Shown: positions 1,429 to 18,014 of the stretch, in pieces
How the letters are laid out: each line of letters starts with the position of its first letter
Numbering within the stretch: the first letter of the stretch is position 1
Sequence record: OQ031495
DNA: 64,000 nucleotides
Origin: Escherichia phage MRostami-2023e
Direction: 5' to 3' (one strand)
Notes under the pieces: model-generated
Database searches by the model: none
Told to the model about the DNA's origin: nothing
What the model saw: the letters and a program-made list of their open reading frames with translations, nothing else
Made by a program: the position numbers and the translations under genes

Positions 1429-1433
1429 AGAAT

Positions 1434-1453: not shown

Positions 1454-1480
1454 GGGGGTCTATAACTTACTGAAAAAGTT

Positions 1481-1512: not shown

Positions 1513-1537
1513 CCCATCAAAACATGAGGAGAATATT

Positions 1538-1798: not shown

Positions 1799-1912
1799 NN
1801 NNNNNNNNNNNNNNNNNNNNNNNNNNNAAATTTGAAAAATTAAAAATAAATGATGTACAAACGCCAAGGACGGTGATACTATAGACTTATCAACTACAGA
1901 GGAGTAAACAAA

Positions 1913-2077: not shown

Positions 2078-2123
2078 GTAAGTTTATGTTATAGTAATCA
2101 CATCAAATCAAGAGGAAAACAAA

Positions 2124-2351
2124 ATGGCTAAAGTTAGTATTGATGTCGTTGATTATGAATACACAGAAGAAGTTATTCGCAACCGTCACCCTGAAGTTCG
2201 TATCGATTCAGTACAAGATTCCAAGTTCTGGACAACCGAGCTTAATCTGAGTGGTCCTTATGAAGCTGTTAAGAAGTTCATGGTTGAAGAATACTGCGAA
2301 GGCATGCACCCCGAAGACGCCAAGTTTTATGTCAATTTGATTAAAAAATAA
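2124..2351 (+). CDS. hypothetical protein (75 aa)
   Basis: AAGAGGAAAACAAAATG start context. Confidence 0.55.
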   Translation: MAKVSIDVVDYEYTEEVIRNRHPEVRIDSVQDSKFWTTELNLSGPYEAVKKFMVEEYCEGMHPEDAKFYVNLIKK

Positions 2352-2386
2352 TTTACAAACTCTTGAGAGCAGAGTATAATGCTCTC
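2352..2386 (+). promoter_or_regulatory. promoter candidate (TTTACA ... TATAAT) with the -10 inside an inverted repeat
   Basis: tttaca(2352-2357), TATAAT(2375-2380), inverted repeat gagagc/gctctc; near-identical copy at about 32994-33045. Confidence 0.45.
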
Positions 2387-2421
2387 GTTGGATAATAAAC
2401 CACCAATTGAAAGGTAATAAT

Positions 2422-3015
2422 ATGAACACACTGAAGAAACTTGTTGAATTCATCCGCACTAAACTGGGTACTGCTATGGCTAAAAATCTGACTGTCGAAG
2501 AACAGTATAACGCAGCTGCAGATAAGTTGATTACCCAAATCAAAGAACTAAAAACGGCTTCTGTTAAATCTATTAATGAAGAAAAACGTATTCGCGAACT
2601 TGTTAATGAAAAGAACAAGCAAGCCGCTTCTAAGGAACGTGAAATTCGTAAGCTCCTGGCCGAAGGACAAGATGTTACCATGCATGCTAAGCTTGGTCTT
2701 CTGTATCGTCGAACTGCCGAACAACTTAATACAAAAGCTGACGGGTATGCCGCTATGCGAATTGAAATTGCTCGTAAGGTGGTTGAACTTGACGATGCTC
2801 GTCAGAACCTGGCAATCAAACTCGAATACATTCGCGAAACTCGAGCAGCTAATGCCCTTGGTATCTCTACGGCCGATGATGTAATTGAAATCGCTGCACT
2901 GACTAAGGTTGATATCGAAGACACTCTGACTCGTGTTGAAACGTTCAATGGCACTCCAGCTGGTGTCGAAACCACTTCTGCTGATGTACAAGAATATATT
3001 AACTCTTTGAAATAA
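2422..3015 (+). CDS. coiled-coil protein (197 aa), weak PspA/IM30-like pattern
   Basis: Long heptad-like charged helices; assignment by eye only. Confidence 0.5.
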
Positions 3016-3023
3016 AATAATAC

Positions 3024-3046
3024 GGAGGACTCCGGTCCTCCTTTTG
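3024..3046 (+). terminator. rho-independent terminator
   Basis: ggaggac-tccg-gtcctcc followed by TTTT. Confidence 0.6.
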
Positions 3047-3064
3047 GATAATAAAGGAGTTAAC

Positions 3065-3667
3065 ATGCGAAACCAAAATAATGATATTGACTCAATGTTC
3101 GAAGAGTTCCGAGATAAGGTAAATCCACCTACGTCTTTAGTTGATTCATTACGATATGTTGCAACTGGGCGTAAATGGTACTGGTCGTCTTCTTATGAGA
3201 CTACTGAGAAAACAGCTAGCCATAGCAGAAAATCTTTATTAGCCCCAGGTATTATGATTCATGATATCGGAGCTATTGCTAAACTAGTTGCAGACCATGA
3301 TATTAGATTCACCGATTTCGTTGCTCCTACATGGTCTGTTTGTTGTTTAAACACCGAATGGGAATATATCAGCGAACGCTCTAAAGATTATTATGGTTTT
3401 AGAGATAAGCTTTTAAGGTCTAACATGTTTTATATTGATACAGAAGTTCTGGTCAATAATAAAAAATACTACTTCACTTTAATCGTCGATTCTGAAACTA
3501 TGTATGAAGGCAAGCCTTTGCTTAAAAGAGTTGATGCTTTAAGTGCTATTGATGCGCTTTATGAAACTATGGTTGTTAGTCCTAATTTCACTAACAATTT
3601 AATCCTTGAGCAATTTATTATGGAATGTAGAGAATATGTCAAAGCCAACCCTATACATGCCAAGTAA
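3065..3667 (+). CDS. hypothetical protein (200 aa)
   Basis: AAAGGAG Shine-Dalgarno plus ATG. Confidence 0.55.
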   Translation: MRNQNNDIDSMFEEFRDKVNPPTSLVDSLRYVATGRKWYWSSSYETTEKTASHSRKSLLAPGIMIHDIGAIAKLVADHDIRFTDFVAPTWSVCCLNTEWEYISERSKDYYGFRDKLLRSNMFYIDTEVLVNNKKYYFTLIVDSETMYEGKPLLKRVDALSAIDALYETMVVSPNFTNNLILEQFIMECREYVKANPIHAK

Positions 3668-4031
3668 GCCCTGGGCATACGAATACAAACGTAAATTAAT
3701 CCCAAACGAAGTACTATTTGGCCCTATTTTAGCTTTAGCATTTTTAATCTTTATGATTATAGGAGCTGTTTTAGATTCCAATAAAGTTATATCGTCCGAT
3801 GCAGCGTTTTCATTAATGTTCGTCGCACCACTTATTGTACCGTTTTTATTAATGCCTATTAATTGGGTAGGATATTGGCACCAAGGCCGTCATCACAGAG
3901 CTCGAGTTCGTGAGTGGAAAGTTCAGTGCGCAAAAGCCCAAGCTCAGTATGATGAAGCTGTTAAAAAGTATGAATATGAAGAAGCTATGGAATTCGTTAA
4001 GGAGATAAGATGCAAAAGCCACAACTCTTAA
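3636..4031 (+). CDS. small membrane protein; member of paralogous family with conserved C-terminal tail
   Basis: Two hydrophobic segments; C-terminal EFVKEIRCK related to the ENFIKECR tail of paralogs; start uncertain (alternative ATG at 3654). Confidence 0.45.
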   Translation: MSKPTLYMPSKPWAYEYKRKLIPNEVLFGPILALAFLIFMIIGAVLDSNKVISSDAAFSLMFVAPLIVPFLLMPINWVGYWHQGRHHRARVREWKVQCAKAQAQYDEAVKKYEYEEAMEFVKEIRCKSHNS

Positions 4032-4369
4032 CCGTATGGCCTTCTCTTGGTGAGAACATTCTAATTTTTATTATGAGTATTGGCATGGGATTTGCCTTTG
4101 GATTAGTTGGATTTCTTATTGACGGCGTTGTGTTAGGATTTATAGGGAACACTGGTGGATTCACAGACCAATGGCAGGACTTACGGTATACCCAAGCCTT
4201 TGCATCCATCGCATCCTTTTGTACTGTAGTCTATTTTTACTACGATTTTATAAACCGTAACAAGAAAAATAAAAAGGTTTACGCTTCTCAAATGGTTAGT
4301 TATAATGAACTCCTAGCTAGACGTGAAAATGAAACAATCGAAAACTTTATTAAGGAATGTAGAAAATGA
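4010..4369 (+). CDS. small membrane protein, paralog family (C-terminal ENFIKECRK)
   Basis: AAGGAG Shine-Dalgarno; hydrophobic N-terminal half; conserved C-terminal motif. Confidence 0.6.
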   Translation: MQKPQLLTVWPSLGENILIFIMSIGMGFAFGLVGFLIDGVVLGFIGNTGGFTDQWQDLRYTQAFASIASFCTVVYFYYDFINRNKKNKKVYASQMVSYNELLARRENETIENFIKECRK

Positions 4370-4671
4370 GTAAGATTATTGAAATTAAAGTACCAGAGTT
4401 TAATGATGCCAAATCCGCTTCAGACGCAATTTATAAACTTCTGAATCAAGCTGAACGTATCGAAGAAGAAGCAACAAAGATCGCAGACCAATATGCCGTA
4501 TCATTTTCTGTAGGTGATTATGGTAGCGGTCGTACTTATTATCCTAAGGGTGAAATCGTATCCCAGTGGATGAAAGATGAAATTGAAAATAATGGTGGCG
4601 ATGTTAAGCGTGAAGGTAATGGTTACGTTATTACTGAAGGTGCTTGGGTTTCGTCTTCTGCGTTGTGCTAA
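4366..4671 (+). CDS. hypothetical protein, first of three tandem paralogs (C-terminal GAWVSSSALC)
   Basis: ATGA overlap with upstream gene; shared C-terminal GWVSSSxxC motif. Confidence 0.6.
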   Translation: MSKIIEIKVPEFNDAKSASDAIYKLLNQAERIEEEATKIADQYAVSFSVGDYGSGRTYYPKGEIVSQWMKDEIENNGGDVKREGNGYVITEGAWVSSSALC

Positions 4672-4680
4672 GGAATCATT

Positions 4681-4953
4681 ATGTCTAAAGAACAAACCGA
4701 ACTGGCTGAAGCTGTAGCAAAAATCTATGCAGCTATTGAGGCTGCCAAAGAAATTGCTGATAAACAAAACACAACATTCAACTTGTACCCAGCTTATGGT
4801 ATGGGTGGAACCTATCATTCACCCGGACAGCTTAAAGCCGATCTTGAACGTTGTACAAAAAACGGCTATGCTGAATGGGCCGACGTTTACCAATACGACT
4901 ACAACCTGAGCCTCGAAACTGGTGGTTGGGTTGCATCTTCTCACACTTGCTAA
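4681..4953 (+). CDS. hypothetical protein, tandem paralog 2 (C-terminal GGWVASSHTC)
   Basis: Shared C-terminal motif and helical N-terminus. Confidence 0.6.
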   Translation: MSKEQTELAEAVAKIYAAIEAAKEIADKQNTTFNLYPAYGMGGTYHSPGQLKADLERCTKNGYAEWADVYQYDYNLSLETGGWVASSHTC

Positions 4954-4962
4954 GGAAACCAT

Positions 4963-5160
4963 ATGTCTCGTGAATTGGATTGTGCTGTACGTACGGCAGT
5001 AGCTGCTCTGGAAAACCTGTTCCAAATTGCAACAGAAGAACGCGAAGAAGTTACATTATGGATTGAAGATAACGCAGGTCTGAATCTCCAGGACGCGATC
5101 TCATTATCCCACAATAGTATCACTGTTCAAGGCTGGGTATCATCTAGTTATTCTTGCTAA
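4963..5160 (+). CDS. hypothetical protein, tandem paralog 3 (C-terminal QGWVSSSYSC)
   Basis: Shared C-terminal motif. Confidence 0.55.
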   Translation: MSRELDCAVRTAVAALENLFQIATEEREEVTLWIEDNAGLNLQDAISLSHNSITVQGWVSSSYSC

Positions 5161-5164
5161 AACA

Positions 5165-5195
5165 GTTTACAACAAGATAGGGCTATGTTATAGTA
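5165..5195 (+). promoter_or_regulatory. T4-type early promoter candidate
   Basis: GTTTACA, 18-nt spacer, TGtTATAGT; palindrome ataggact/agtcctat around the -10. Confidence 0.5.
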
Positions 5196-5222
5196 GTCCT
5201 ATCAAATTAAATGGAGTTCACA

Positions 5223-5462
5223 ATGATTTATTACGAAAGTATCGGAACCGAAGTAGTTGCTAAAACTATTACTCGTGAAAAGTTTGCAAAGATATTCGAT
5301 ATGCGTTATAAAAAATCTGAACACAAAGGCATCCGATTCGAAGATGCGCACTGTACAATTTGCCCTTATAATGAAGACATAAACGGTACAATCGTTCCAT
5401 TGGTAGAGGCTTCACATGTCGACCTCTGGGATGAATATGATATCGCATGTCGTGAAATTTAA
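5223..5462 (+). CDS. hypothetical protein (79 aa)
   Basis: GGAG Shine-Dalgarno upstream of ATG at 5223. Confidence 0.5.
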   Translation: MIYYESIGTEVVAKTITREKFAKIFDMRYKKSEHKGIRFEDAHCTICPYNEDINGTIVPLVEASHVDLWDEYDIACREI

Positions 5463-5490
5463 GTTAATGAATTAATCCGAGGAAAATATT

Positions 5491-6447
5491 ATGATGTTAG
5501 TTATTGGTTCTCGTGCACTTCACTATCACGGTCTTATTGATTCTAGCGCTATCAAAAATAGTGATTGGGACTTTATTGCGGACCAATGTTCTTGGAATGC
5601 ATTCAAAAATCAAATGATGGGTGTATATGTCCACCAAGATAACCCTGATGTCCAAGTTTTCAAATGCTTCCATAATGGACGCGAAACTCATTTTGAAGCA
5701 TATATTGTTCCGGCAATCACTAACGTTCGCGAACTAGTCGGTGAACTCACTCCTGAAGATTTCACGTCTTCTTATGACCTTTTAAAATACGCCAAGAAAA
5801 ATTTGACTAAAGACCGTTTGAACGGGTTTTACTGGGCAACTCCCGAGATATGTCTTGCAATTAAGATGTCTCATCGTTTCAAGAAAAATAATCCATTCTT
5901 TTTAAAGACTATGAACCATATTCAGTATCTTCGTGGTAAAGGTGTTACACTGAACGATGAACTTACTGAAATTATGCTGAAACGCCAGAAAGAAACCTTG
6001 AACTATGCTCACCCAGTTCTTGACACTTCTAAAAGTGCGTTCTTTAAAGATGACATCTATACATATGACCATGATACTATTCACGAAGCCATTGCGTTAA
6101 CAGGCCGCCCAGCGTATACATTTTATATGAAAGACGGTTCTGAAGTCATGACCTCACGTGAGAAGTTCGAATCGTTACCAGAAATGGTCAAATTGGCCGG
6201 TGTATATGAAGAATCATGTGTACTAGCATTAGAACGTTCTCAGATTCCTAATGACTTTAAAATTAACCCTGAAGCCAGTTTCATGATGGCATTAGAAAAA
6301 GTCTGCACAAGCATCACCTCCGGTTGGTTCCGTGAATACGCATACGAGAACTACAGCAAAGTTGTAAGTATGTATCATAAGCTCGGCAAAAATGATTACA
6401 TTAAACGGTTTAAAGAAAATTTTCATATGGTGAAACCTTTCAAATAA
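5491..6447 (+). CDS. hypothetical protein (318 aa), possible minimal nucleotidyltransferase fold
   Basis: N-terminal GS...(15 aa)...DWDF pattern resembles Pol-beta-type NTase hG[GS]/DxD motif; weak. Confidence 0.5.
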   Translation: MMLVIGSRALHYHGLIDSSAIKNSDWDFIADQCSWNAFKNQMMGVYVHQDNPDVQVFKCFHNGRETHFEAYIVPAITNVRELVGELTPEDFTSSYDLLKYAKKNLTKDRLNGFYWATPEICLAIKMSHRFKKNNPFFLKTMNHIQYLRGKGVTLNDELTEIMLKRQKETLNYAHPVLDTSKSAFFKDDIYTYDHDTIHEAIALTGRPAYTFYMKDGSEVMTSREKFESLPEMVKLAGVYEESCVLALERSQIPNDFKINPEASFMMALEKVCTSITSGWFREYAYENYSKVVSMYHKLGKNDYIKRFKENFHMVKPFK

Positions 6448-6728
6448 CTTCACAAAACTGTTTACANNNNNNNNNNNNNNNNNNNNNNNNNNNNNNNNNN
6501 NNNNNNNNNNNNNNNNNNNNNNNNNNNNNNNNNNNNNNNNNNNNNNNNNNNNNNNNNNNNNNNNNNNNNNNNNNNNNNNNNNNNNNNNNNNNNNNNNNNN
6601 NNNNNNNNNNNNNNNNNNNNNNNNNNNNNNNNNNNNNNNNNNNNNNNNNNNNNNNNNNNNNNNNNNNNNNNNNNNNNNNNNNNNNNNNNNNNNNNNNNNN
6701 NNNNNNNNNNNNNNNNNNNNNNNNNNNN

Positions 6729-6760
6729 GTTTACACAATTATAGGACTATGTTATAGTAG
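6729..6760 (+). promoter_or_regulatory. T4-type early promoter candidate
   Basis: GTTTACA ... TGtTATAGT immediately after masked region; same palindrome as at 5165. Confidence 0.45.
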
Positions 6761-6786
6761 TCCTATTAAAACATGAGGAGAATATT

Positions 6787-7092
6787 ATGAAATTAACAGA
6801 AACCAATCGAATTGGTCTTTTAACAATACTTGCATCACCTTTTTACGCAACTCTTTCTGTTGCGGTATTACAAAAGGCTTACAGTATGGATGGTGTTCCT
6901 GGTTGTATATTTTTATCACCATTTTTGCTATTCGTTGGAGCTTTGTTATTATATGCCACGTCTGGTTTCGACAATAATGTCTGGGTCAATTATAAACGTA
7001 AATTGTCTGAAGAAGAACACGCAGAAGCTCGTAAAAAAGCTATTGAATCTACCAATCTAGAAAATTTCATTAAAGAATGTCGAGGAAAATAA
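6787..7092 (+). CDS. small membrane protein, paralog family (C-terminal ENFIKECRGK)
   Basis: Two TM-like segments; conserved C-terminal motif. Confidence 0.6.
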   Translation: MKLTETNRIGLLTILASPFYATLSVAVLQKAYSMDGVPGCIFLSPFLLFVGALLLYATSGFDNNVWVNYKRKLSEEEHAEARKKAIESTNLENFIKECRGK

Positions 7093-7093
7093 T

Positions 7094-7780
7094 ATGAATA
7101 GTTCTAAAGTGTTTAATAGTCAAGCTCGTGCAGTAGGTGGTTTTGCTCATGCGATTAAAAACGACCAGATTAAAAACGAGCCTATGTTCTTCAACTGTAG
7201 TTTAGAATTTGCTTATAATAACGGCGGTCCTATTACTCGCAGCTTCATCATGAACTTGCCAGATGATTGGAACACCGACCAGGTTGTATTTGATTCACGA
7301 GTCCACATGCTGATGCCTGGTTGGTACCCTGCTATCCCAGGTTATCACCATGACGATGTACCACGCCCGGATATTCCGGTTGGTCAACACTTTATTACTG
7401 CAGGACAACCTGACTATGACAATCCTCGCTATTTGTCTGAACATATTCTTGGTCTTGTTAACGCTGATGTGTGTCCTACTCATTTTGCAACAGGAACTGC
7501 AGAGTTCAGTCAGATTCCTGATGGCGAACTTATCTATCGTCAGTGGCACAAAGAAGTCCTCGAAAAAATTGAAAAAGGCGAACTAGAGAAATGGGAAGCT
7601 CCAGATCGTACTCTTCTTCAGTTTGATTGGCAAACATGGCACACTGGTTCTCGTGCAATTAGTAACGGATGGCGTTGGTTCGGACGTGTATCTCGTAATA
7701 CAGACCGAGTTAAAAAGATTACCAATGAAATTCGTGTCAATGCCCAAGTTTATCTGGAATTCCCTATGGAAGGCTGGTAA
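7094..7780 (+). CDS. hypothetical protein (228 aa)
   Basis: ORF with coupled start; His/Asp-rich segment GYHHDD; function unknown. Confidence 0.55.
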   Translation: MNSSKVFNSQARAVGGFAHAIKNDQIKNEPMFFNCSLEFAYNNGGPITRSFIMNLPDDWNTDQVVFDSRVHMLMPGWYPAIPGYHHDDVPRPDIPVGQHFITAGQPDYDNPRYLSEHILGLVNADVCPTHFATGTAEFSQIPDGELIYRQWHKEVLEKIEKGELEKWEAPDRTLLQFDWQTWHTGSRAISNGWRWFGRVSRNTDRVKKITNEIRVNAQVYLEFPMEGW

Positions 7781-8271
7781 TGATTAACAAAACATATTGG
7801 TCTAATATAGACGATGGCAACGAAGGTATTTCATACTATTCAGTAGATTGGTCAGGATGTCCATCCTACTTAGTGAAGCATATTTGCCAAGAATTTAAAA
7901 TCGACCAGCCAGCAGGTATTATCGTGAACAGATACATTAATGGATATCAACCTATCGATGAAGTAATACGAACAACTCAAGCTGAGCTTGAAAAGTTTTT
8001 CAATAAGTGCCAATGGATAACAGGATGGATTATATTTGTACCGTCGGTATGGTTTTTTAGTACTAAGGTGAGTTCTTTCGGTTTTGTTGATATTATTGCT
8101 ATCTTATTAGCATCTACTATCGTAAGTATTATTGGTGGCATCATTGGCGGCGGTACCGCCGCCATCATTATTAATCTTGTTAAAAGTAGTTTACAGGAAC
8201 GTAAAGACAGGATAAAGGCCAAGAATAATGAAGTTGAACGTTTTATTACCGAATGCAGGAATTTGAGATGA
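7780..8271 (+). CDS. membrane protein, paralog family (C-terminal ERFITECRNLR)
   Basis: ATGA overlap; Gly/Ile-rich TM segments; conserved C-terminal motif. Confidence 0.55.
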   Translation: MINKTYWSNIDDGNEGISYYSVDWSGCPSYLVKHICQEFKIDQPAGIIVNRYINGYQPIDEVIRTTQAELEKFFNKCQWITGWIIFVPSVWFFSTKVSSFGFVDIIAILLASTIVSIIGGIIGGGTAAIIINLVKSSLQERKDRIKAKNNEVERFITECRNLR

Positions 8272-8504
8272 GTATAGCAATTTACATTAAATCAGAATCA
8301 TGTGATAGTTATCTATACACATACGATAAAGATGTGTCAGAAGAAAAAATCAAAGACGACCTTAATATGGACCTTGATATGTTCTGTCCTATTGCAGATT
8401 ACAAACTTGCGGTCTCTAATAGTGAAAGTCCATCTAAAGAAACGCGCATTGAAGAATTTATGTCCGAATTAATGGCCAAATCATGGGACCGAGATGATGA
8501 GTAA
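8268..8504 (+). CDS. hypothetical acidic small protein
   Basis: ORF; start ambiguous between 8253 and 8268. Confidence 0.45.
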   Translation: MSIAIYIKSESCDSYLYTYDKDVSEEKIKDDLNMDLDMFCPIADYKLAVSNSESPSKETRIEEFMSELMAKSWDRDDE

Positions 8505-8952
8505 GAAAAATAAAGTGAAAGAACTATCAGCCGGTATTATTTTCCTTACCGAAGATAAAGAATTATTCATGGGGCGTGTAACTGGTTCTCGTCCTAAAGG
8601 TTCTTTAGCTCATCGGTGGGATATTCCTAAAGGACGTGTCGAGCCCGGTGAATCTCCTATCGAAGCCGCTATTCGCGAATGCGAAGAAGAAACTGGGTTT
8701 ACACAATATGACCCTGCCTTCCTGAAAGACCTAGGTGAACATCATTACTCAGACAATAAGAATATTCATCTGTTCCTATATACCATCCCTGTAGAGCACG
8801 AGCAATTCAGAAACAGTGTTTGTAATTCCTATCATACGTTCCCAGACGGACGTCAGATTCCTGAATTTGATGCATTCGCTTTAATTAAACCTTCTCAATG
8901 GGAATATGTAATGGGCAAATCATTATATAAGGTGCTCACTACCCTCCTATAA
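8494..8952 (+). CDS. nudE: Nudix hydrolase NudE (T4 e.1 homolog)
   Basis: Nudix box GRVEPGESPIEAAIRECEEETG; position immediately upstream of e. Confidence 0.8.
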   Translation: MMSKKNKVKELSAGIIFLTEDKELFMGRVTGSRPKGSLAHRWDIPKGRVEPGESPIEAAIRECEEETGFTQYDPAFLKDLGEHHYSDNKNIHLFLYTIPVEHEQFRNSVCNSYHTFPDGRQIPEFDAFALIKPSQWEYVMGKSLYKVLTTLL

Positions 8953-8960
8953 GTAATAAA

Positions 8961-8984
8961 TACCTCCTATAAACGTGGGAGGTA
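8961..8984 (+). promoter_or_regulatory. RNA hairpin sequestering the Shine-Dalgarno of lysozyme gene e, with late-promoter-like TATAAAcg in the loop
   Basis: tacctcc (8961-8967) pairs with ggaggta (8978-8984), which contains the GGAGG SD 5 nt before the ATG. Confidence 0.55.
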
Positions 8985-8986
8985 TT

Positions 8987-9475
8987 ATGAATATATTTGA
9001 AATGCTTCGTAATGACGAAGGTCTTAGACTGACTTTATACAAAGACACTGAAGGCTTTTGGACGATTGGCATAGGCCATTTAGTAACAAAGAACCCGTCT
9101 TTAGCCGTAGCTAAAGCTGAACTTGACAGAATGATCGGACGTAAATGCAACGGTACAATTACCCTTGATGAGGCCGAAAAGCTATTTAATGAAGACGTTG
9201 ATAAAGCCGTTCGCGGAATCTTGGGTAATGCTAAACTTAAACCGGTATATGATTCTTTAGATGCGGTTCGTCGTTGTGCATTGGTCAATATGGTCTTCCA
9301 AATGGGTGTAGCAGGCGTCGCCGGTTTTACTAATTCTCTTCGTATGCTTCAACAGAAACGTTGGGATGAAGCGGCAGTAAATCTAGCCCAATCTAAATGG
9401 TATCGTCAGACACCTAATCGCGCGAAACGCGTAATCTCAACATTTAAAACAGGAACTTGGAAAGCGTATATATGA
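8987..9475 (+). CDS. e: T4-type lysozyme (endolysin, gene e)
   Basis: MNIFEMLR...DEGLRL..YKDTEG..TIGIGHL...[27 protein letters not shown] matches remembered T4 lysozyme nearly throughout. Confidence 0.95.
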
Positions 9476-9753
9476 AAACATATAGTGAATTTTTATCAGA
9501 ATCTATTCTTAACGAAGCTACTGACACATTTGCAACTAAGCTAGGTGCAGCTTTGGTTGAAGCCGAAAGTCTACTAGCACGTATTTCTGAACTTGCTAGT
9601 AAGATAGATACTCGCAAATTTGAACGTACTAGCGATATCGCTAAGCTTGAAGCCTTGTTACGTATGTGCAATAAACCGGAAGAAATCGCTAAGAACGGCT
9701 CGCTGATGAAACAACGTCTTGAAAAATATATTTCAGGCGCTTCAGAAAAATAG
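9472..9753 (+). CDS. internal protein (IPII/IPIII-like) with capsid targeting sequence
   Basis: N-terminus [10 protein letters not shown]; T4 position of ipIII/ipII between e and denV. Confidence 0.65.
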
Positions 9754-9754
9754 T

Positions 9755-9788
9755 GTTTACTTCCTCCAAGGGTTTTGATACTATACAT
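9755..9788 (+). promoter_or_regulatory. T4-type early promoter candidate upstream of denV
   Basis: GTTTAC ... gaTACTATac. Confidence 0.4.
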
Positions 9789-9811
9789 TCATCAACTACT
9801 TGGAGGAAATT

Positions 9812-10348
9812 ATGACTCGTATCAATTTAACACTTGTTTCTGAACTGACCGACCAACATCTTATGGCTGAGTATCGTGAATTACCACGCGTATTTGGTGC
9901 AGTCCGTAAACATGTTCAAAACGGTAAACGTGTAAAGGATTTTAAAATCTCTCCAACATTTATCTTAGGCACAGGTCACGTAACATTCTTTTACGACAAA
10001 CTTGAATTTTTACGTTTAAGACAAATCGAGCTAATCGCTGAATGTTTGAAACGTGGTTTCAAAATCAAGGACACGACAGTCCAGGATATTTCCGACATCC
10101 CTGCCGAATTTCGTAATAATTATGTCCCGTCCGAAGCGTCCATTGCGATAAGTCAAGCACGCTTAGATGAAAAAATTGCTCAACGTCCGACTTGGTACAA
10201 ATACTATGGTAAATCAATTTACCAAGGAAAAATGAAAATGTATCAAGAATTTATCATTGAAGCAGATGCCAAAGGTCCTAAAGTAGATGTTGACGATATT
10301 GGATACGATTTTAACAACTTCGGAATTATTTCTGGCGGTAAAGCTTAA
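9812..10348 (+). CDS. denV: endonuclease V (pyrimidine-dimer DNA glycosylase DenV) with about 40-aa C-terminal extension
   Basis: First about 136 aa match remembered T4 DenV ([34 protein letters not shown]..); normal stop position is read through into [16 protein letters not shown].. Confidence 0.85.
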
Positions 10349-10411
10349 ATTGTTTACGCTTAAGTATTAATATGGTATAATTACTCTATCAAAACAAACA
10401 AGGAAACAAAA

Positions 10412-10729
10412 ATGAAAACATATAAAGAATTTATCGCCGAATCTGCTGCAGGACAACGTGTAGAAGGTGGTTATATCTGGATTGAACAAGTTGAGCCGCC
10501 AAGTCGCACTTCTACAGGTAAATGGAAAATCACTGTTGATGGTCCTGGTGGTAAACGTAGGACTCTTAAAGAAATTAATGGGTACTATGAAGAAGCTCTT
10601 TCTGACGCGGGTACTTATATGATGCAAATCATGATTAAAAACCCAGAAAATCGTTTTGCGGCTAGAGTTTTCCGCCGTATTGGAAATAAGCTTTATGATG
10701 CATATTCTAAAAACTTCCCTAAAGAATAA
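10412..10729 (+). CDS. internal-protein-like protein with capsid targeting sequence
   Basis: N-terminus MKTYKEFIAES. Confidence 0.6.
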   Translation: MKTYKEFIAESAAGQRVEGGYIWIEQVEPPSRTSTGKWKITVDGPGGKRRTLKEINGYYEEALSDAGTYMMQIMIKNPENRFAARVFRRIGNKLYDAYSKNFPKE

Positions 10730-10745
10730 AAATTAAAGGAAACAT

Positions 10746-10777
10746 ATGAAAACATATCAAGAATTTATTACTGAAGC
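10746..10777 (+). CDS. internal-protein-like gene, 5' end only (continues into masked region)
   Basis: AAGGAAACATATG start; MKTYQEFITE capsid-targeting-like N-terminus; truncated by N-run. Confidence 0.5.
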
Positions 10778-11381
10778 NNNNNNNNNNNNNNNNNNNNNNN
10801 NNNNNNNNNNNNNNNNNNNNNNNNNNNNNNNNNNNNNNNNNNNNNNNNNNNNNNNNNNNNNNNNNNNNNNNNNNNNNNNNNNNNNNNNNNNNNNNNNNNN
10901 NNNNNNNNNNNNNNNNNNNNNNNNNNNNNNNNNNNNNNNNNNNNNNNNNNNNNNNNNNNNNNNNNNNNNNNNNNNNNNNNNNNNNNNNNNNNNNNNNNNN
11001 NNNNNNNNNNNNNNNNNNNNNNNNNNNNNNNNNNNNNNNNNNNNNNNNNNNNNNNNNNNNNNNNNNNNNNNNNNNNNNNNNNNNNNNNNNNNNNNNNNNN
11101 NNNNNNNNNNNNNNNNNNNNNNNNNNNNNNNNNNNNNNNNNNNNNNNNNNNNNNNNNNNNNNNNNNNNNNNNNNNNNNNNNNNNNNNNNNNNNNNNNNNN
11201 NNNNNNNNNNNNNNNNNTATTTACATTCAAATAACATGGGAACAACCTGGACCTCATGATTCTATGAGGGATTCCCGCCAACCTGTAATAAGGTCGAGCC
11301 CAAGTGCGGTAATGGGTTTACATAGCGAGTCGAAGGACCTAACATGTGCCACGGAATGGCCCAAACCTTAAGAGAAATAAT

Positions 11382-11921
11382 ATGAGAACATTTTTAACTG
11401 GACCTTATCTATCCCTGATGAATGCTTTTACACACCATTCTGATGCTAGAGTAGAAGAAATTTGTAAGAACGGATATGTCCCACCATTTGAAGACGTACT
11501 CAAGCAGTACTGTACACTTCGTTTAGACGGCGGCCGACAATCAGGTAAATCAATTGCTGTGACTAACTTTGCTGCTAATTGGCTGTATGATGGTGGAACG
11601 GTTATTGTTCTTTCTAATACTTCAGCTTATGCTAAAATTTCTGCTGGCAACATTGAAAAAGAATTTTCTCGTTATTCTAGCGACGATATTCGATTCCGTT
11701 TATTTACTGATTCTGTTCGTAGTTTTATTGGCAATGAAGGTTCTAAATTCCGTGGATTAACGCTTTCTCGTATTCTGTATATAATTGACGAGCCTATTAA
11801 AGCTCCTGATATGGATAAGATTTACAATGTCCATATTAAAACAGTACAGTACTGCTGTAAAAGCAAATATTGCATCGGCGGTAATGCTCGTCCTCAATTT
11901 TTTGTGATTGGAATGCAATGA
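11382..11921 (+). CDS. hypothetical P-loop protein (179 aa)
   Basis: Walker A-like GGRQSGKS. Confidence 0.5.
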   Translation: MRTFLTGPYLSLMNAFTHHSDARVEEICKNGYVPPFEDVLKQYCTLRLDGGRQSGKSIAVTNFAANWLYDGGTVIVLSNTSAYAKISAGNIEKEFSRYSSDDIRFRLFTDSVRSFIGNEGSKFRGLTLSRILYIIDEPIKAPDMDKIYNVHIKTVQYCCKSKYCIGGNARPQFFVIGMQ

Positions 11922-12226
11922 TGACCACTATTGAAGTTTTTGAATATTGTTATAACAGTCCAGTATGCAATAAAAGGGCCCTTGTAGAAAATTACGAGAT
12001 TTACCATTTTAAACCTAAACGATATCGTTTGACTAAAGGTCCGTTCGCAGGGCAGCAGGTTCTTTGTACTGCTCCTAATGCACGACTGATGACTAGTATT
12101 CCACATTTCAAAATGGAATTTATTGATGGGCCATTTAAGGGATTAATCACTCAAAGTTTAATGGCGTTTAATTCCGTCCCATTTTTGATTAAAGAAAAAA
12201 CTTGGATAAATTTATTTTCTAATTGA
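11918..12226 (+). CDS. hypothetical protein (102 aa)
   Basis: ATGA-coupled ORF. Confidence 0.5.
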   Translation: MMTTIEVFEYCYNSPVCNKRALVENYEIYHFKPKRYRLTKGPFAGQQVLCTAPNARLMTSIPHFKMEFIDGPFKGLITQSLMAFNSVPFLIKEKTWINLFSN

Positions 12227-12232
12227 GGTTAT

Positions 12233-12595
12233 ATGAAAGCATATCAAATTCTTGAAGGCACACACAAAGGCACTATTTATTTTGAAGACGGTACTCAAGC
12301 CCGGATTATTGTCTCTAAGACTTTTAAAGAAGACGCTATTGTAGACCCGGAAATTTTCTACGGTTTGCATGCCCGTGAAATTGAAATTGAACATCAACCT
12401 AAAGTTAAAATTGAAGGTGGTCAACATCTGAACGTTAACGTTCTGCGTCGTGAAACTCTGGAAGATGCAGTTAAGCATCCAGAAAAATATCCGCAGTTGA
12501 CCATCCGTGTATCCGGTTATGCAGTTCGCTTTAACTCTCTGACTCCGGAACAGCAGCGCGACGTTATCGCTCGTACCTTTACTGAGAGTCTATAA
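12233..12595 (+). CDS. GrcA/YfiD-like autonomous glycyl-radical cofactor protein
   Basis: C-terminal [56 protein letters not shown] contains the glycyl-radical motif RVSGYAV; 3' half is GC-rich with host-like codons. Confidence 0.8.
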
Positions 12596-12819
12596 TGGCT
12601 AAATTGATTATAGAAGGGTCTGAAGATGTTTTAAAATGTTTTGCCGCCTGGTTTAGTTGCTCAGGCGAGCAATCATTCATTGAAGCATTTAGAATGGGTG
12701 ATATTACTGGAAACTATCCGGCAACTGATATCACTGTACGTGGATATGGTATTAATGAGCCTATCCAATTGGTCGAATATGACCTTGCCACCGATGAGGA
12801 AATTCCTTATGTCGATTGA
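12595..12819 (+). CDS. hypothetical protein (74 aa)
   Basis: ATG overlapping upstream stop. Confidence 0.5.
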   Translation: MAKLIIEGSEDVLKCFAAWFSCSGEQSFIEAFRMGDITGNYPATDITVRGYGINEPIQLVEYDLATDEEIPYVD

Positions 12820-13075
12820 AGATATTAAAGGCTACAAGCCACATACCGACGATAAAATCGGTAAAGTGAACGCTATTAAAGATGCAGAAGTCCGTCTTGG
12901 ATTGTTGTTTGATGCTCTGATTGAAGAAGCATATATCTTGAAAGAAAATGAAACAGAGCAACAAACCAAAGAAGATATGGATGCAGTACAGGCTCTTAAG
13001 TATGCTAAGCAACATCTAAAAGAAGCCAGCATGTGGGCCTGTCGTGCAGTATTTCGACCTGAGGAAAAATACTAA
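12809..13075 (+). CDS. hypothetical protein (88 aa)
   Basis: ATG at 12809 overlapping upstream stop; long upstream reading frame judged not coding. Confidence 0.45.
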   Translation: MSIEDIKGYKPHTDDKIGKVNAIKDAEVRLGLLFDALIEEAYILKENETEQQTKEDMDAVQALKYAKQHLKEASMWACRAVFRPEEKY

Positions 13076-13293
13076 TGGCTNNNNNNNNNNNNNNNNNNNN
13101 NNNNNNNNNNNNNNNNNNNNNNNNNNNNNNNNNNNNNNNNNNNNNNNNNNNNNNNNNNNNNNNNNNNNNNNNNNNNNNNNNNNNNNNNNNNNNNNNNNNN
13201 NNNNNNNNNNNNNNNNNNNNNNNNNNNNNNNNNNNNNNNNNNNNNNNNNNNNNNNNNNNNNNNNNNNNNNNNNNNNNNNNNNATCAAAGAGTA

Positions 13294-13325
13294 GTTTACT
13301 TCTCCTCTAGTTGTGTTACTATAGA
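13294..13325 (+). promoter_or_regulatory. T4-type early promoter candidate
   Basis: GTTTAC ... tgtTACTATag. Confidence 0.45.
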
Positions 13326-13350
13326 CCTGTCAACTAGAGGAGAAATCAAA

Positions 13351-13809
13351 ATGACTATCAATTCAGACGTTTTTATCCGCCGTAATAAACTCCGTCGAAT
13401 CTTTGAAACGGAGTTCCGCAAAATAAATGCCAGTATAAAAGATGCTGCAAAGTCTCTTGGACTACCAGGCTTTCATATCAAGTATTCTCAACATCTCTTA
13501 GATCGTGCCATCCAGAGAGAAATAGATGAGAATTACGTTTTTGAATTATTTCGTAAAGTAAAAAATCATGTTAAAGAAGTTGCAGAATTTTTATCAATGC
13601 CGGCACGTCCAGATGTTGATGAAGATTTTGTCGAAGGCGTCGAATATCGCCCAGGCCGTTTAGAAATAACTGATGGAAATCTTTGGTTAGGACTTACAGT
13701 CTGTCGCGAAAATCCAGCATTCAAAATGAAGACTCTTCAATGCAGAATGGCTATTATTAACAGTAAACGACTACCAGGAAAAGCTTCTAAAGCCGTGATT
13801 AAAATCTAG
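13351..13809 (+). CDS. regB: RegB-like sequence-specific endoribonuclease
   Basis: MTINSDVFIRRNKLRR...HIKYSQHLLDRAIQREIDE...CRMAIINS.RLPGKASKAVIK matches my memory of T4 RegB (153 aa); correct map position. Confidence 0.65.
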   Translation: MTINSDVFIRRNKLRRIFETEFRKINASIKDAAKSLGLPGFHIKYSQHLLDRAIQREIDENYVFELFRKVKNHVKEVAEFLSMPARPDVDEDFVEGVEYRPGRLEITDGNLWLGLTVCRENPAFKMKTLQCRMAIINSKRLPGKASKAVIKI

Positions 13810-13817
13810 AGGTAAAC

Positions 13818-14360
13818 ATGAGAAAAGCACTACTCGCTGGTCTATTTGCTCTTTCATTATCAGCACATAGCTCCGAGCATACTTTTAGTAATGTCCAACT
13901 CGATAACTTGAATTATGCTTATCAGTTTGGGGAACAGTTTTCTAAGGATGGAAAATTTAAAACGCATGAAAATATGCATAAGAAAGGACTTGGATACATA
14001 ATGGCCGCAATACTATGGCAAGAATCATCTGCCGGTATTAATCTTAAAGATAAGAAAGGTCACCATGCGTATGGAATGTTCCAAAATTATCTACCAACAA
14101 TGAGGGCAAGAATTAACCAGCTTGGTTACAATATGACTGATGCCCAAATTAAGAAAATGCTATCTAAGCGGTCTAATTCAGCCAGATGGGCTTATATAGA
14201 ATTTTCTTATTGGTTAAATATACATAACGGGGATATAAGAAAAGCTATATCCTCATATAATGCGGGATGGAAGACAAGTGCTGGAAGTAAATATGCTTCT
14301 GAAGTCCTAGAAAAGGCTAATTACCTTAAATCAAATAAACTACTGGAAATAAAAGAATGA
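13818..14360 (+). CDS. secreted lytic-transglycosylase (SLT-domain)-like protein
   Basis: N-terminal signal peptide; ES...AYGMFQ pattern resembling SLT catalytic ES and GLMQ motifs. Confidence 0.5.
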   Translation: MRKALLAGLFALSLSAHSSEHTFSNVQLDNLNYAYQFGEQFSKDGKFKTHENMHKKGLGYIMAAILWQESSAGINLKDKKGHHAYGMFQNYLPTMRARINQLGYNMTDAQIKKMLSKRSNSARWAYIEFSYWLNIHNGDIRKAISSYNAGWKTSAGSKYASEVLEKANYLKSNKLLEIKE

Positions 14361-14704
14361 CCAAAATGTTGGCTTTAATAGTTGGCTTGGTTTCATTTAA
14401 CGCTCTTGCTAATACTACATATACTGATGTAACGGAGTATACAAACAGAACGGCGTCTGATTATTGTGGTAAAAGTCAAGAGTGTAAAGTAGATTTTTCA
14501 CAAAAATTGTTATATGCGTATAAAGACGGAGAAAAAGATGGGGCGTCTAGTAGGTTCAAGGCGTCTACCTTAATTAAAAGATACTATAAAAAATGGCAAA
14601 TATTAGAATGCTCGGTGGCGGAACCTAAAGATAAGGCAGCATGCAATTCTATGGTGGACCGTCTAGTTGACTCTTATAATAGAGGACTTGCAGCAAGTGA
14701 TTAA
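14357..14704 (+). CDS. secreted/periplasmic small protein (115 aa)
   Basis: Signal peptide MTKMLALIVGLVSFNALA; Cys-containing mature part. Confidence 0.5.
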   Translation: MTKMLALIVGLVSFNALANTTYTDVTEYTNRTASDYCGKSQECKVDFSQKLLYAYKDGEKDGASSRFKASTLIKRYYKKWQILECSVAEPKDKAACNSMVDRLVDSYNRGLAASD

Positions 14705-15154
14705 AAACTATATCAAGGGCGATATTGTCGCCCTGTTTTCTAAAGGTAATAATATTGCTCATGGGTGTAATTGTTTTCATACAATGGGCGCCGGTGTAGC
14801 AGGCCAATTAGCAAAGGCTTATCCAAAAATTTTAGAAGCCGATAAACTTCAAACTGCATATGGAGACGAGTCTAAACTCGGGTCTTATTCGGTTTATGAA
14901 AAATATTTTAAGACCCATAAAGCTTATTGCTTTAATCTTTATACGCAGTTTGAGCCTGGACCTAATTTTGAGTACTCTGCTTTAATGAATTGTATAATAG
15001 AATTAAATGAATTCGGAAAGAATAAGATAACAAAGCCTGTAATTTATATGCCAAGAATTGGTGCCGGTATTGGTGGTGGAAACTGGGATGTCATCGAAGA
15101 GATTTTAGATACGTATTCCACTAAACTAGAAATTGTGATTGTTGATTGGGAACC
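14697..15154 (+). CDS. macro-domain (ADP-ribose-binding/processing) protein, 3' end masked
   Basis: GDIV..(N)AHGCNCF..MGAGVAGQL resembles macro-domain NAAN/GGGV motifs; GTG start at 14697 assumed; runs into N-run. Confidence 0.45.
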
Positions 15155-15578
15155 NNNNNNNNNNNNNNNNNNNNNNNNNNNNNNNNNNNNNNNNNNNNNN
15201 NNNNNNNNNNNNNNNNNNNNNNNNNNNNNNNNNNNNNNNNNNNNNNNNNNNNNNNNNNNNNNNNNNNNNNNNNNNNNNNNNNNNNNNNNNNNNNNNNNNN
15301 NNNNNNNNNNNNNNNNNNNNNNNNNNNNNNNNNNNNNNNNNNNNNNNNNNNNNNNNNNNNNNNNNNNNNNNNNNNNNNNNNNNNNNNNNNNNNNNNNNNN
15401 NNNNNNNNNNNNNNNNATGGACTGTTTTTTTTACTTTATGTAACGATGAAATGATATGTGATTTTGATTATTGGTGTTATTGCTATTGATACAATAAAGG
15501 ATGTACAAATCATACAGGTGAAGGTTTCTATTCCGGGTTTCAACCGTATCCAGACTTTGTNNNNNNNNGTGAACCTAA

Positions 15579-15761
15579 ATGAAATTAACTAAAGAAGAGA
15601 AAGCTAAACTGTTCGAACTTATCCATGACCTATTGGACGAGCAAGCAGCCACCAATGCGTACGATGAATATGCTCCTTTAACAGATGAAGAATATCAAGC
15701 ATTGATGGAATCATTTGACAGGAAAGAACAAGAACTCATTGACTACGTGAATTCACTATAA
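15579..15761 (+). CDS. hypothetical acidic small protein (60 aa)
   Basis: ORF between masked region and tk. Confidence 0.45.
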   Translation: MKLTKEEKAKLFELIHDLLDEQAATNAYDEYAPLTDEEYQALMESFDRKEQELIDYVNSL

Positions 15762-15770
15762 GGGACTCTT

Positions 15771-16352
15771 ATGGCTAGTTTAATTTTTACATATGCCGCT
15801 ATGAATGCTGGTAAGTCTGCTTCATTACTTACTGCCGCACATAACTATAAAGAACGTGGCATGGGTGTATTAGTTCTTAAACCGGCTATTGATACTCGCG
15901 ATTCAAAAGGTGAAATAGTCTCTCGTATTGGTATTCGTCAGGATGCCAATATAATTACAAAAGACATGGATATCTTTGAATTCTATAAATGGGCTGCAGC
16001 ACAAAAGGATATTCACTGTGTATTTGTTGACGAAGCTCAGTTCTTAACTACTGAAAAGGTGTATCAACTTAGTCGTATTGTTGACGTATACAATGTGCCG
16101 GTAATGGCATATGGACTACGAACAGATTTTAAAGGTAATCTATTTGAAGGTTCTCAAGCATTAATGGCTATTGCCGATAAGCTTGTTGAACTTAAAGGTG
16201 TCTGTCATTGTGGTAAAAAGGCCACAATGGTAGCTAGAGTCACGGAAGACGGACTTCCAATTACAGATGGCAGTCAAATTGAAATTGGTGATACCGATAG
16301 ATATGTGTCATTATGCCGGAAGCATTGGAATGATTTGACAGGGTTGTTATAA
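15771..16352 (+). CDS. tk: thymidine kinase
   Basis: P-loop AMNAGKS, Zn-finger CHCG...C; 193 aa as in T4 Tk. Confidence 0.9.
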   Translation: MASLIFTYAAMNAGKSASLLTAAHNYKERGMGVLVLKPAIDTRDSKGEIVSRIGIRQDANIITKDMDIFEFYKWAAAQKDIHCVFVDEAQFLTTEKVYQLSRIVDVYNVPVMAYGLRTDFKGNLFEGSQALMAIADKLVELKGVCHCGKKATMVARVTEDGLPITDGSQIEIGDTDRYVSLCRKHWNDLTGLL

Positions 16353-16379
16353 ATACTAATATCTAACCAAGAGGTATAT

Positions 16380-16592
16380 ATGCAGCAATTAAACGAAAGA
16401 CAACTTCGTAATCTTACTGTAACCCAATTGGATGAAATCCGAAGAGAATTAGGACATTCTATTTCTCATTTAAACGAGGATATCCGTCAAACTGGTTCTA
16501 AAGCTGATTATACACGCAAGCGCAAGCTGGAAAAATACCTCACAGATGTTAAGGCCGTCCAAAGGCGAAAAATAAATACTGGCCAAAATTAA
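16380..16592 (+). CDS. hypothetical protein (position of T4 rI.1)
   Basis: ORF with AAGAGGTATATATG start. Confidence 0.5.
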
Positions 16593-16604
16593 CAGGAGGC
16601 CTAT

Positions 16605-16907
16605 ATGGCCTTAAGAGCGATAGCTGTCATGGCGATGCTGGGGTTTTTTGCAGCAACAACTCCTAACGTTGGTACTGCATATGTTGACCCATATTTTGAT
16701 AACTTTATGGAATCAGGGATTAAAAACGTATATACTTTGTTTGAAATTCAAAATGTCGAGAATTCTGAAAAATTCTATAAGTATATGGCAAAGCATTACA
16801 AAAATAGCCCCTGTGATGATGCATTTGAATGTCATGAACAAGGCATAAAAACTGCCAGACAATTTGCCGAGTTCATGAAAATAAAATTAGAGCCTACATC
16901 TATCTAA
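16605..16907 (+). CDS. rI: lysis-inhibition regulator rI (antiholin)
   Basis: Signal-anchor N-terminus and DPYFDNFMESGIKNVYTLFE...C..FEC match remembered T4 RI. Confidence 0.8.
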   Translation: MALRAIAVMAMLGFFAATTPNVGTAYVDPYFDNFMESGIKNVYTLFEIQNVENSEKFYKYMAKHYKNSPCDDAFECHEQGIKTARQFAEFMKIKLEPTSI

Positions 16908-16912
16908 TTTAC

Positions 16913-16940
16913 TAGCCCCTTCCTTATGGTTGGGGCTTTT
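16913..16940 (+). terminator. rho-independent terminator
   Basis: agcccc...ggggct then TTTTT; near-copy of terminator at 723. Confidence 0.6.
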
Positions 16941-16951
16941 TGGCATCTATC

Positions 16952-16981
16952 AGTTTACTTCTCCTCAGGTTGTGTTATAGT
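16952..16981 (+). promoter_or_regulatory. T4-type early promoter candidate
   Basis: GTTTAC ... TGtTATAGT. Confidence 0.45.
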
Positions 16982-17008
16982 AAACCTTACTTACTAGAGG
17001 AGAACGTT

Positions 17009-17188
17009 ATGACACGTAAAGAAAAAATTTCTAAGTTAATGTTTTTGATTGAAGAGTACGCTAATGCGGTATCTGATTGGGAAAATGCTCATGGTTGCGA
17101 AGATGGAGACATCGACATTAACAGAGCTATGAAAAAGATGGCTGACGCCCACACCGAATTGCAAATGTATGTTAACGAGATTATGTGA
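17009..17188 (+). CDS. hypothetical small protein (59 aa)
   Basis: GAGGAGAACGTTATG start. Confidence 0.45.
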   Translation: MTRKEKISKLMFLIEEYANAVSDWENAHGCEDGDIDINRAMKKMADAHTELQMYVNEIM

Positions 17189-17195
17189 GGATATT

Positions 17196-17288
17196 ATGCT
17201 TTACGATTATACTGGAAAATCTGAAGACGGTGTACTTGAACTTTTACCTGAAAGCGCTGAAGATGATGATATGGTGGTGATGTTTTGT
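17196..17288 (+). CDS. hypothetical protein, 3' end masked
   Basis: ATG after GAGG; runs into N-run at 17289. Confidence 0.35.
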
Positions 17289-17669
17289 NNNNNNNNNNNN
17301 NNNNNNNNNNNNNNNNNNNNNNNNNNNNNNNNNNNNNNNNNNNNNNNNNNNNNNNNNNNNNNNNNNNNNNNNNNNNNNNNNNNNNNNNNNNNNNNNNNNN
17401 NNNNNNNNNNNNNNNNNNNNNNNNNNNNNNNNNNNNNNNNNNNNNNNNNNNNNNNNNNNNNNNNNNNNNNNNNNNNNNNNNNNNNNNNNNNNNNNNNNNN
17501 NNNNNNNNNNNNNNNNNNNNNNNNNNNNNNNNNNNNNNNNNNNNNNNNNNNNNNNNNNNNNNNNNNNNNNNNNNNNNNNNNNNNNNNNNNNNNNNNNNNN
17601 NNNNNNNNNNNNNNNNNNNNNNNNNNNNCAAGTTGAAGAACTTTATCGACATTTAAAACACAATCGGTA

Positions 17670-17700
17670 GTTTACATCTTGGTAGGATTATGTTATAGTA
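17670..17700 (+). promoter_or_regulatory. T4-type early promoter candidate
   Basis: GTTTACA ... TGtTATAGT with the ataggact palindrome. Confidence 0.45.
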
Positions 17701-17834
17701 GTCCTATCAAAACGAACGGAGACCAAAATGAAACTTTTGCTTATCGCTTATGTTGTAGTACAATATAATTATCCGATGTTTACTTATAACATGGTAAACG
17801 GCATAGTGAATCTTATTGAAACGAGTATGGTAAA

Positions 17835-18014
17835 ATGACCCGTGAACAAGCTAATAAATTGATGGACCTTATCCGTGACTTACGTGAAGCCGATTCAGAT
17901 TTGAATGATGTAGCTTATCATGCGGTAAATGATAACGGAGATTTTTATGAAAATCAGGTTGACGCTTGCCAGAATGCTTTGGTGAATTTTGTTGAAACTT
18001 TAATTGGTGAATAA
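17835..18014 (+). CDS. hypothetical small protein (59 aa)
   Basis: In-frame ORF MTREQANKLMDLIRDL...; coupled to next gene. Confidence 0.4.
   Translation: MTREQANKLMDLIRDLREADSDLNDVAYHAVNDNGDFYENQVDACQNALVNFVETLIGE

Follow-up and report, generated by a model that had tools for sequence, protein, structure and literature searches.

The denV gene of Escherichia phage MRostami-2023e (OQ031495) has lost its stop codon and reads in frame into the downstream gene ORF125c, a short allele of an internal-head-protein gene. Our analysis covers a 64,000-nucleotide stretch of this phage (the window, numbered from its first letter). We think it likely that a single T-to-C change at position 10223 fused denV and ORF125c, that the fusion yields an active DenV with a tail and less of the free peptide, and that the change is neutral or mildly deleterious. 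Directly observed are the mutation itself, how rare it is, what the two partners are, and that the catalytic core of DenV is intact. Both parts belong to known families and the fused coding sequence is already deposited, uncommented, in the genome of phage vB_EQ1, so this is not a new system; what is new is the stop-loss fusion of DenV with a mini-gene that carries a targeting sequence.

denV continues in frame into ORF125c

Both the ORF listing and the sequence give a single open frame on the + strand, from the ATG at 9812 to the TAA at 10346-10348. It encodes 178 amino acids, made up of 137 residues of DenV, the three residues Q-G-K and a 38-residue peptide. The frame and its parts are as follows.

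9802..9806, + strand: GGAGG Shine-Dalgarno of denV, 5 nt before ATG 9812 (sequence)
9812..10348, + strand: fused frame, 178 codons plus TAA; predicted product 20.5 kDa, pI 9.0
9812..10222, + strand: DenV (T4 endonuclease V / pyrimidine-dimer DNA glycosylase) part, 137 codons (PF03013, phrog_1183, 2END)
10223..10225, + strand: CAA (Gln) at the denV stop position, with T-to-C at 10223 (alignment with relatives)
10224..10228, + strand: AAGGA Shine-Dalgarno of the mini-gene, within the fused frame; relatives have it overlapping the denV stop (TAAGGA)
10232..10348, + strand: short (38-codon) allele of RB69 ORF125c, internal head protein (phrog_35655, phrog_2667)
10232..10261, + strand: capsid-targeting-like decapeptide (alignment with T4 IPII and IPIII; motif scan)
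10277..10282, + strand: CCTAAA deletion junction (alignment; BLAST overlap against vB_EQ1)

Tyr137 is followed by CAA GGA AAA (Q, G, K) and then by ATG AAA ATG TAT CAA GAA TTT ATC ATT GAA. The initial annotation, made from the letters of the window, had proposed that denV lacks its stop and reads in frame into an internal-protein-like peptide, and the open frame from 9812 to 10348 with CAA at codon 138 bears this out. Its count of about 136 T4-matching residues needs correction: the match is confirmed by the alignment with 2END, and it spans 137 residues, as in RB69. The extension, put at about 40 codons, is present and comprises exactly 41 (QGK plus 38), and the MKMYQEFI motif with which it was said to start is there, but QGK precedes the ATG at 10232. 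An AAGGA Shine-Dalgarno had been noted ahead of the mini-gene, and we find it at 10224-10228, 3 nt from the first ATG. The suggestion of a remnant or mini internal-protein gene fused to denV also holds on both counts, as relatives carry a separate ORF125c gene 6 nt downstream and alignment shows the 38-codon part to be the 86-codon gene minus 48 internal codons.

No argument from chance is needed to explain the open frame, because the gene that follows is known as a separate one and happens to lie in the frame of denV. Programmed readthrough or frameshifting was ruled out, the stop being missing in the DNA itself. A large protein collection lists the exact 178-aa protein once, encoded on a 169,098-bp NCBI contig.

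A rare substitution removes the denV stop codon

In an alignment of five genomes, codon 138 is TAA in RB69, PhAPEC2 and UGJNEcP1 and CAA in the window and vB_EQ1. This is the sole difference at the end of denV, which reads TTTAC-TAA-GGAAAAATG in the first three and TTTAC-CAA-GGAAAAATG in the other two, so that the comparison with RB69 denV proposed in the initial annotation shows TAA where the window has CAA. In the TAA relatives ORF125c is in frame with denV, its ATG 6 nt past the denV stop. Therefore, any loss of the denV stop joins both genes, and one T-to-C transition at 10223 is enough for the fusion.

The frequency of the change was determined by megablast with 41-mers centred on the codon, in which every 28-base seed spans the codon and only exact-codon matches are thus returned. 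TAA was present at the denV stop in 178 phage records and CAA in a single one, that of vB_EQ1, while AAA, GAA, TCA, TTA, TAC, TAT, TAG and TGA were found in no phage record. The CAA junction was found neither in IMG/VR nor in complete E. coli genomes, and in GTDB genomes the junction had no match whichever codon stood at the stop; with the codon left free, IMG/VR and metagenomes yielded four more contigs, all with TAA. As to whether close relatives keep a stop at this place, a point on which the initial annotation had staked its reading, the more distant relatives do and the nearest, vB_EQ1, does not. The stop loss is real but rare, and private to the one lineage formed by the window and vB_EQ1.

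The window and vB_EQ1 form one lineage

The window is part of a Mosigvirus (RB69-like) genome and matches 246 phage records, mostly at 95-99% identity. The closest genome is that of Escherichia phage vB_EQ1 (PQ516281.1), with 100% identity in all shared blocks of positions 1-17288, one mismatch aside, and 98.8-99.97% beyond; the blocks are broken by indels, N-runs and one cassette replacement. From this identity and these breaks taken together, the window and vB_EQ1 are of one lineage but are different genomes. The GenBank record of vB_EQ1 carries the fusion as a 226-aa CDS annotated 'endonuclease V' (CDS0039, XPQ48255.1). This CDS has the CAA stop loss and 100% identical flanking DNA in common with the window, but its partner is the full-length 86-codon ORF125c and the neighbouring internal-protein (IP) cassette is a different one.

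The two cassettes (10441-11217 in the window, 17352-17908 in vB_EQ1) are bounded on both sides by DNA of 100% identity. That of the window comprises a 105-aa ORF (10412-10729) and a second ORF, beginning MKTYQEFITE..., from 10746, and that of vB_EQ1 one IpIII-like gene of 192 aa. Divergence starts at 10441, directly behind the ten targeting-sequence codons of the 105-aa ORF, and its onset at this very point suggests that the cassettes were swapped by recombination in the conserved DNA that encodes the targeting sequence.

Ten N-runs interrupt the window (1799-1827, 6467-6728, 10778-11217, 13081-13282, 15155-15416, 15561-15568, 17289-17628, 24267-24293, 27540-27724 and 29739-29911), one of which covers the greater part of the ORF beginning at 10746. 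The runs differ in length from the segments of vB_EQ1 that correspond to them, with 29 N against about 217 bp in one case and 262 N where vB_EQ1 has nothing in another; the N-runs therefore hide real indels or replacements and are not simple gaps.

The DenV part is intact and carries an acidic tail

The DenV part matches PF03013 with 53.1 bits against a cut-off of 23 and phrog_1183 with E=3.7e-62. Residues 1-137 are collinear with residues 1-137 of T4 endonuclease V (PDB 2END, E=1.8e-81) and 99% identical to the commonest Mosigvirus DenV cluster. DenV catalysis uses the amine of Thr2, which becomes N-terminal after removal of Met, together with Glu23, while Arg3, Arg22 and Arg26 bind DNA. All five residues are identical to those of the T4 enzyme in the alignment with 2END, and the window has these catalytic and DNA-binding residues in common with both T4 DenV (T4-pdg; PDB 2END, 1VAS) and RB69 DenV (NP_861816, 137 aa). 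Unlike T4 DenV (138 aa) and RB69 DenV (137 aa), the protein has no stop after Tyr137 and goes on for 41 residues. At 178 aa it exceeds the length of the T4/RB69 subgroup, whose members have about 137-138 aa and end just past the WYKYY segment; that length is not family-wide, and other PF03013 members have tails.

Among these, the homologues P0043 (179 aa), P0058 (171 aa) and P0052 (242 aa) resemble the fusion in that a PF03013 domain is followed by a tail of 30-100 aa. Their tails differ in being of unrelated sequence, lacking the targeting motif and being conserved within each cluster, and they do not stem from recent stop loss. More broadly, the distant DenV homologues P0043, P0049, P0054, P0058, P0095 and P0052 are 51-60% identical and have conserved C-terminal extensions of 30-100 aa that are unrelated to internal proteins; some lie on contigs of up to about 350 kb, and three end in ...EEQIK(D/E)EMNNY.

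An AF2 model of the fusion gave pLDDT values of 81-96 in all but two ten-residue blocks of the DenV domain. Tail residues 139-178 were below 50, with two single-residue exceptions; any helix over the targeting sequence was weak, and the model showed neither a confident structure nor a confident docking for the tail. The computed pI is 4.6 for the tail and 9.5 for the basic DenV. A motif scan also found two L/I-x-E motifs inside DenV itself.

On our preferred reading, the T-to-C change at 10223 (TAA to CAA) would have removed the denV stop in one Mosigvirus lineage, and translation from the ATG at 9812 would give a 20.5-kDa fusion of DenV(1-137) with a 41-residue tail. The main product would be active DenV with a flexible, acidic C-terminal extension. 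By analogy, the 178-aa enzyme is probably still active, since it is the N-terminal amine that takes part in catalysis and C-terminal additions, natural or engineered, are tolerated by homologues; the related cv-pdg with an engineered C-terminal NLS has been purified and used (PMC5768739). The acidic tail could weaken electrostatic DNA scanning or non-specific DNA binding.

The mini-gene retains capsid-targeting determinants

RB69ORF125c (NP_861815, 86 aa) is listed in RefSeq as 'internal head protein', and full-length RB69 ORF125c matches phrog_2667, 'internal head protein', with E=9.7e-22. The 38-aa allele of the window, with the same targeting N-terminus and the same C-terminus as the RB69 protein, matches phrog_35655 with E=2.4e-30 and phrog_2667 weakly, with E=3.4e-4. 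An identical or nearly identical 38-aa ORF is annotated as a separate gene in PhAPEC2 and UGJNEcP1: from M141 on, the tail equals the UGJNEcP1 ORF and is one residue off PhAPEC2 gp112 (YP_009056704). No usable literature was found on RB69ORF125c, ORF125c, vB_EQ1 or Mosigvirus virion proteomics of ORF125c.

The mini-gene shares with T4 IPI, IPII and IPIII the decapeptide MK-x-YQEFI-x-E, an L/I-x-E gp21 site and its place in a cluster of such genes. Within the T4 capsid-targeting sequence, residues 4 and 7 serve targeting and residues 8 and 10 processing, and gp21 cuts after L/I-x-E (PMC9026906). Alignment of T4 IPII and IPIII, the neighbouring IP genes and the mini-gene shows M1, K2, Y4, E6, F7 and E10 to be invariant, and the targeting and processing determinants Y4, F7, I8 and E10 are all kept in the mini-gene. 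A site for the prohead protease gp21, I-I-E followed by A, is predicted between 10261 and 10262, and processing there would leave an acidic peptide of 28 residues (2.9 kDa, pI 4.3). No similarity to T4 IPII was detectable outside the targeting decapeptide.

Two in-frame ATGs, at 10232 and 10238 (MKM...), lie 3 nt and 9 nt from AAGGA, respectively. The start chosen in GenBank differs, being the first ATG in PhAPEC2 and the second in UGJNEcP1, and with a start at 10238, Tyr4 and Phe7, which serve targeting, would become residues 2 and 5. Both ATGs and AAGGA are retained in the window, but they lie within the denV frame and the upstream stop is gone. The ancestral overlap of stop and Shine-Dalgarno (TAAGGAAAAATG) suggests termination-reinitiation coupling. 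The free 38-aa peptide would still be able to start at AAGGA/ATG, though probably less often; less of it may be made than in TAA phages, because coupling to denV termination would be lost and elongating ribosomes would cover the site.

Relative to the 86-codon allele, the 38-codon allele lacks 144 bp (48 codons) between two CCTAAA repeats, and the deletion keeps the frame. The same junction is found in 10 records, from about 7 phages, where the gene is separate; the 38-aa alleles of PhAPEC2 and UGJNEcP1 likewise have this CCTAAA junction, but as a separate gene behind TAA. In the window, both sides of the deletion are 100% identical to vB_EQ1 and carry no PhAPEC2 or UGJNEcP1 substitutions. For this reason, the deletion most likely arose again, by slippage in a vB_EQ1-like background after the stop loss.

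Genomic neighbourhood

The gene order of the region is nudE, e, an internal-head-protein gene of the RB69 ORF127c type, denV, ORF125c, more genes with targeting N-termini, and vs.8. The features that flank the fused frame are listed here.

9472..9753, + strand: upstream gene for an internal head protein, homologous to RB69 ORF127c (hit to phrog_3499 'internal head protein', E=5.1e-46)
9756..9784, + strand: promoter-like TTTACT-17 nt-TACTAT upstream of denV (by eye, 8/12, below the scan threshold)
10353..10381, + strand: strong promoter of early type serving the next IP gene, TTTACG-17 nt-TATAAT, TG present (scan, 10/12)
10412..10729, + strand: next targeting-N-terminus gene, MKTYKEFIAE, 105 aa (ORF list; phrog_3966)

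The ORF127c-type neighbour is annotated as an internal head protein in RB69, PhAPEC2 and vB_EQ1, and denV sits within a cluster of genes with targeting N-termini (9472-9753, 10412-10729 and from 10746). T4 has the order ipIII, ipII, denV, vs.8 and, unlike the window, no internal-protein gene after denV; the same mutation would not give such a fusion there, because T4 denV precedes vs.8.

Phage Lutter has annotated promoters in the region homologous to 9756-9784, where we infer a candidate denV promoter. The promoter at 10353-10381 would mark the end of a denV-ORF125c transcription unit, to which both genes are assigned because they lie 6 nt apart with this strong early-type promoter after them. 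The late promoter TATAAATA was not found within 6 kb of the locus, its nearest copies lying at 753 and 16348.

At the RNA level, a hairpin at 10200-10228 (GGUAAA-UCAA-UUUAC(C/U)) abuts the Shine-Dalgarno of the mini-gene. The T-to-C change turns its closing G.U pair into G-C and shifts the predicted energy from -11.7 to -14.0 kcal/mol (about 2.3 stronger). The junction folds were indistinguishable from shuffled controls (z = -0.4 and -0.9), and an RNA structural element at this site was dropped from consideration on that ground.

ORF125c is often damaged in other genomes

A search with ORF125c returned only 12 protein clusters, several of them damaged versions of the gene. Frameshifted or truncated forms are P0149, P0150, P0152 and P0153, and P0151, annotated in phage UFV13, is truncated at its N-terminus. 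In P0155 (54 aa), a deletion links codon 30 of denV, in frame, to the final 24 codons of ORF125c; the protein is encoded at 1244-1408 of a 1657-bp Logan contig from SRR29457804 (L011), which shows that DenV loss is possible in nature. The junction of P0155 falls at an AGTCC(G/T)TAAA microhomology with the same right-hand GTCCTAAA motif as the 144-bp deletion, and this motif looks like a deletion hot spot. Another Logan contig (L012, ERR4504460, 10,051 bp) has at 2050-2075 a short ORF125c allele with six As and not five before the ATG. The extra A in the spacer puts denV and ORF125c out of frame, and the gene caller lengthened the mini-gene at its 5' end, into the +1 frame of denV, giving the 60-aa P0154.

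Among the cluster representatives there was no full-length DenV-ORF125c fusion, only the 54-aa deletion fusion P0155. Clustering at 90% identity placed ORF125c proteins of 84-86 aa and DenV proteins of 137 aa in one cluster of 475 members. Since ORF125c and DenV have no similarity and yet were clustered together, a further fused sequence may bridge the two; none was seen among the 40 members that were read.

The internal proteins of T4 are dispensable, injected and highly specific inhibitors of GmrSD-type restriction enzymes (PMC12373910; PMC3012670). Anti-restriction genes of this kind are expected to turn over fast, by gain, loss and degradation, and to decay where their target is missing. 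That ORF125c is often frameshifted, truncated or deleted elsewhere speaks for a lesion close to neutral, in an accessory locus that changes fast. The change at 10223 would then be neutral or mildly deleterious, another lesion in a fast-decaying internal-protein locus and not a designed fusion. The allele has outlasted at least two subsequent changes in this lineage (the 144-bp deletion, the IP cassette swap), which argues that it is not strongly harmful; a benefit is possible.

Alternative explanations

An erroneous base call or assembly seems highly improbable to us. The true base at 10223 would then be T and the genes separate, as in all other Mosigvirus genomes, and such an error would agree with a difference of one base, with the ten N-runs in the window and with the near-identity of the only other carrier, which could share a pipeline or phage stock. 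What makes an error unlikely is that the lineage has two different assemblies: the same base is found in both, although they differ by a 144-bp indel 50 bp away and also in the IP cassette, several other indels and substitutions. Substitution errors outside homopolymers are, moreover, rare in consensus assemblies, and 10223 stands in such a non-homopolymer context. If the base is real, the tail might inactivate or destabilise DenV and make the allele an effective denV knock-down in a lineage without need for UV repair, for example under sewage or laboratory propagation. We consider this unlikely, if less so than an error. The tail is acidic and predicted to be disordered, denV is largely deleted in at least one natural contig, so that its loss is tolerated, and the gene is non-essential in T4; yet the catalytic Thr2 amine and Glu23 are intact, many homologues have long C-terminal tails, and a C-terminally extended cv-pdg has been produced and used.

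An adaptive fusion, in which the internal targeting sequence brings DenV into the prohead core for packaging and ejection with the DNA, appears very unlikely. It supposes that gp21 cuts after I-I-E (residue 150), freeing the usual 28-aa peptide while DenV keeps the targeting sequence, and that UV-damaged phage DNA is repaired before any gene expression. Y4, F7, I8, E10 and the L/I-x-E site are indeed intact, the allele has lasted through the later rearrangements, and ten targeting residues suffice to package foreign proteins in T4 (PMC9026906; PMC3012670), where fusions of targeting sequence and cargo have been engineered (Mullaney and Black 1996, as reviewed in PMC9026906 and PMC3012670). In every tested case, however, the targeting sequence formed the N-terminus of the cargo, as the known ones do in being N-terminal propeptides, whereas here the folded DenV lies N-terminal and the 'cargo' behind the sequence is only 28 residues long. 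Moreover, only one of the 179 comparable genomes has the allele, no other stop-loss allele was found, and no late promoter TATAAATA lies within 6 kb. The protease might also cut at the two L/I-x-E motifs in DenV, and cleaved DenV, still attached to the targeting sequence, might leave with the core debris. Taken together, the evidence leads us to favour the near-neutral stop-loss fusion with an active, tailed DenV.

Significance

For annotation, the 178-aa CDS of the window and the 226-aa CDS of vB_EQ1 are two known genes joined, not a new long endonuclease V. No long-standing question hangs on the outcome. In the very improbable case that the capsid-targeting reading is true, a UV-repair glycosylase would be carried in or through the capsid and would repair sunlight damage before transcription, and DenV would be the 150-residue 'propeptide' of a 28-aa peptide. 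The phage is, in addition, a natural construct with which to ask if a capsid-targeting sequence can act from behind a folded protein, and if a T4-type endonuclease V can bear an acidic C-terminal tail. Point lesions alter the internal-protein locus of T-even-like phages, as do slippage deletions at microhomologies of the CCTAAA type and swaps of cassettes, and the swap junction falls in the DNA that encodes the targeting sequence.
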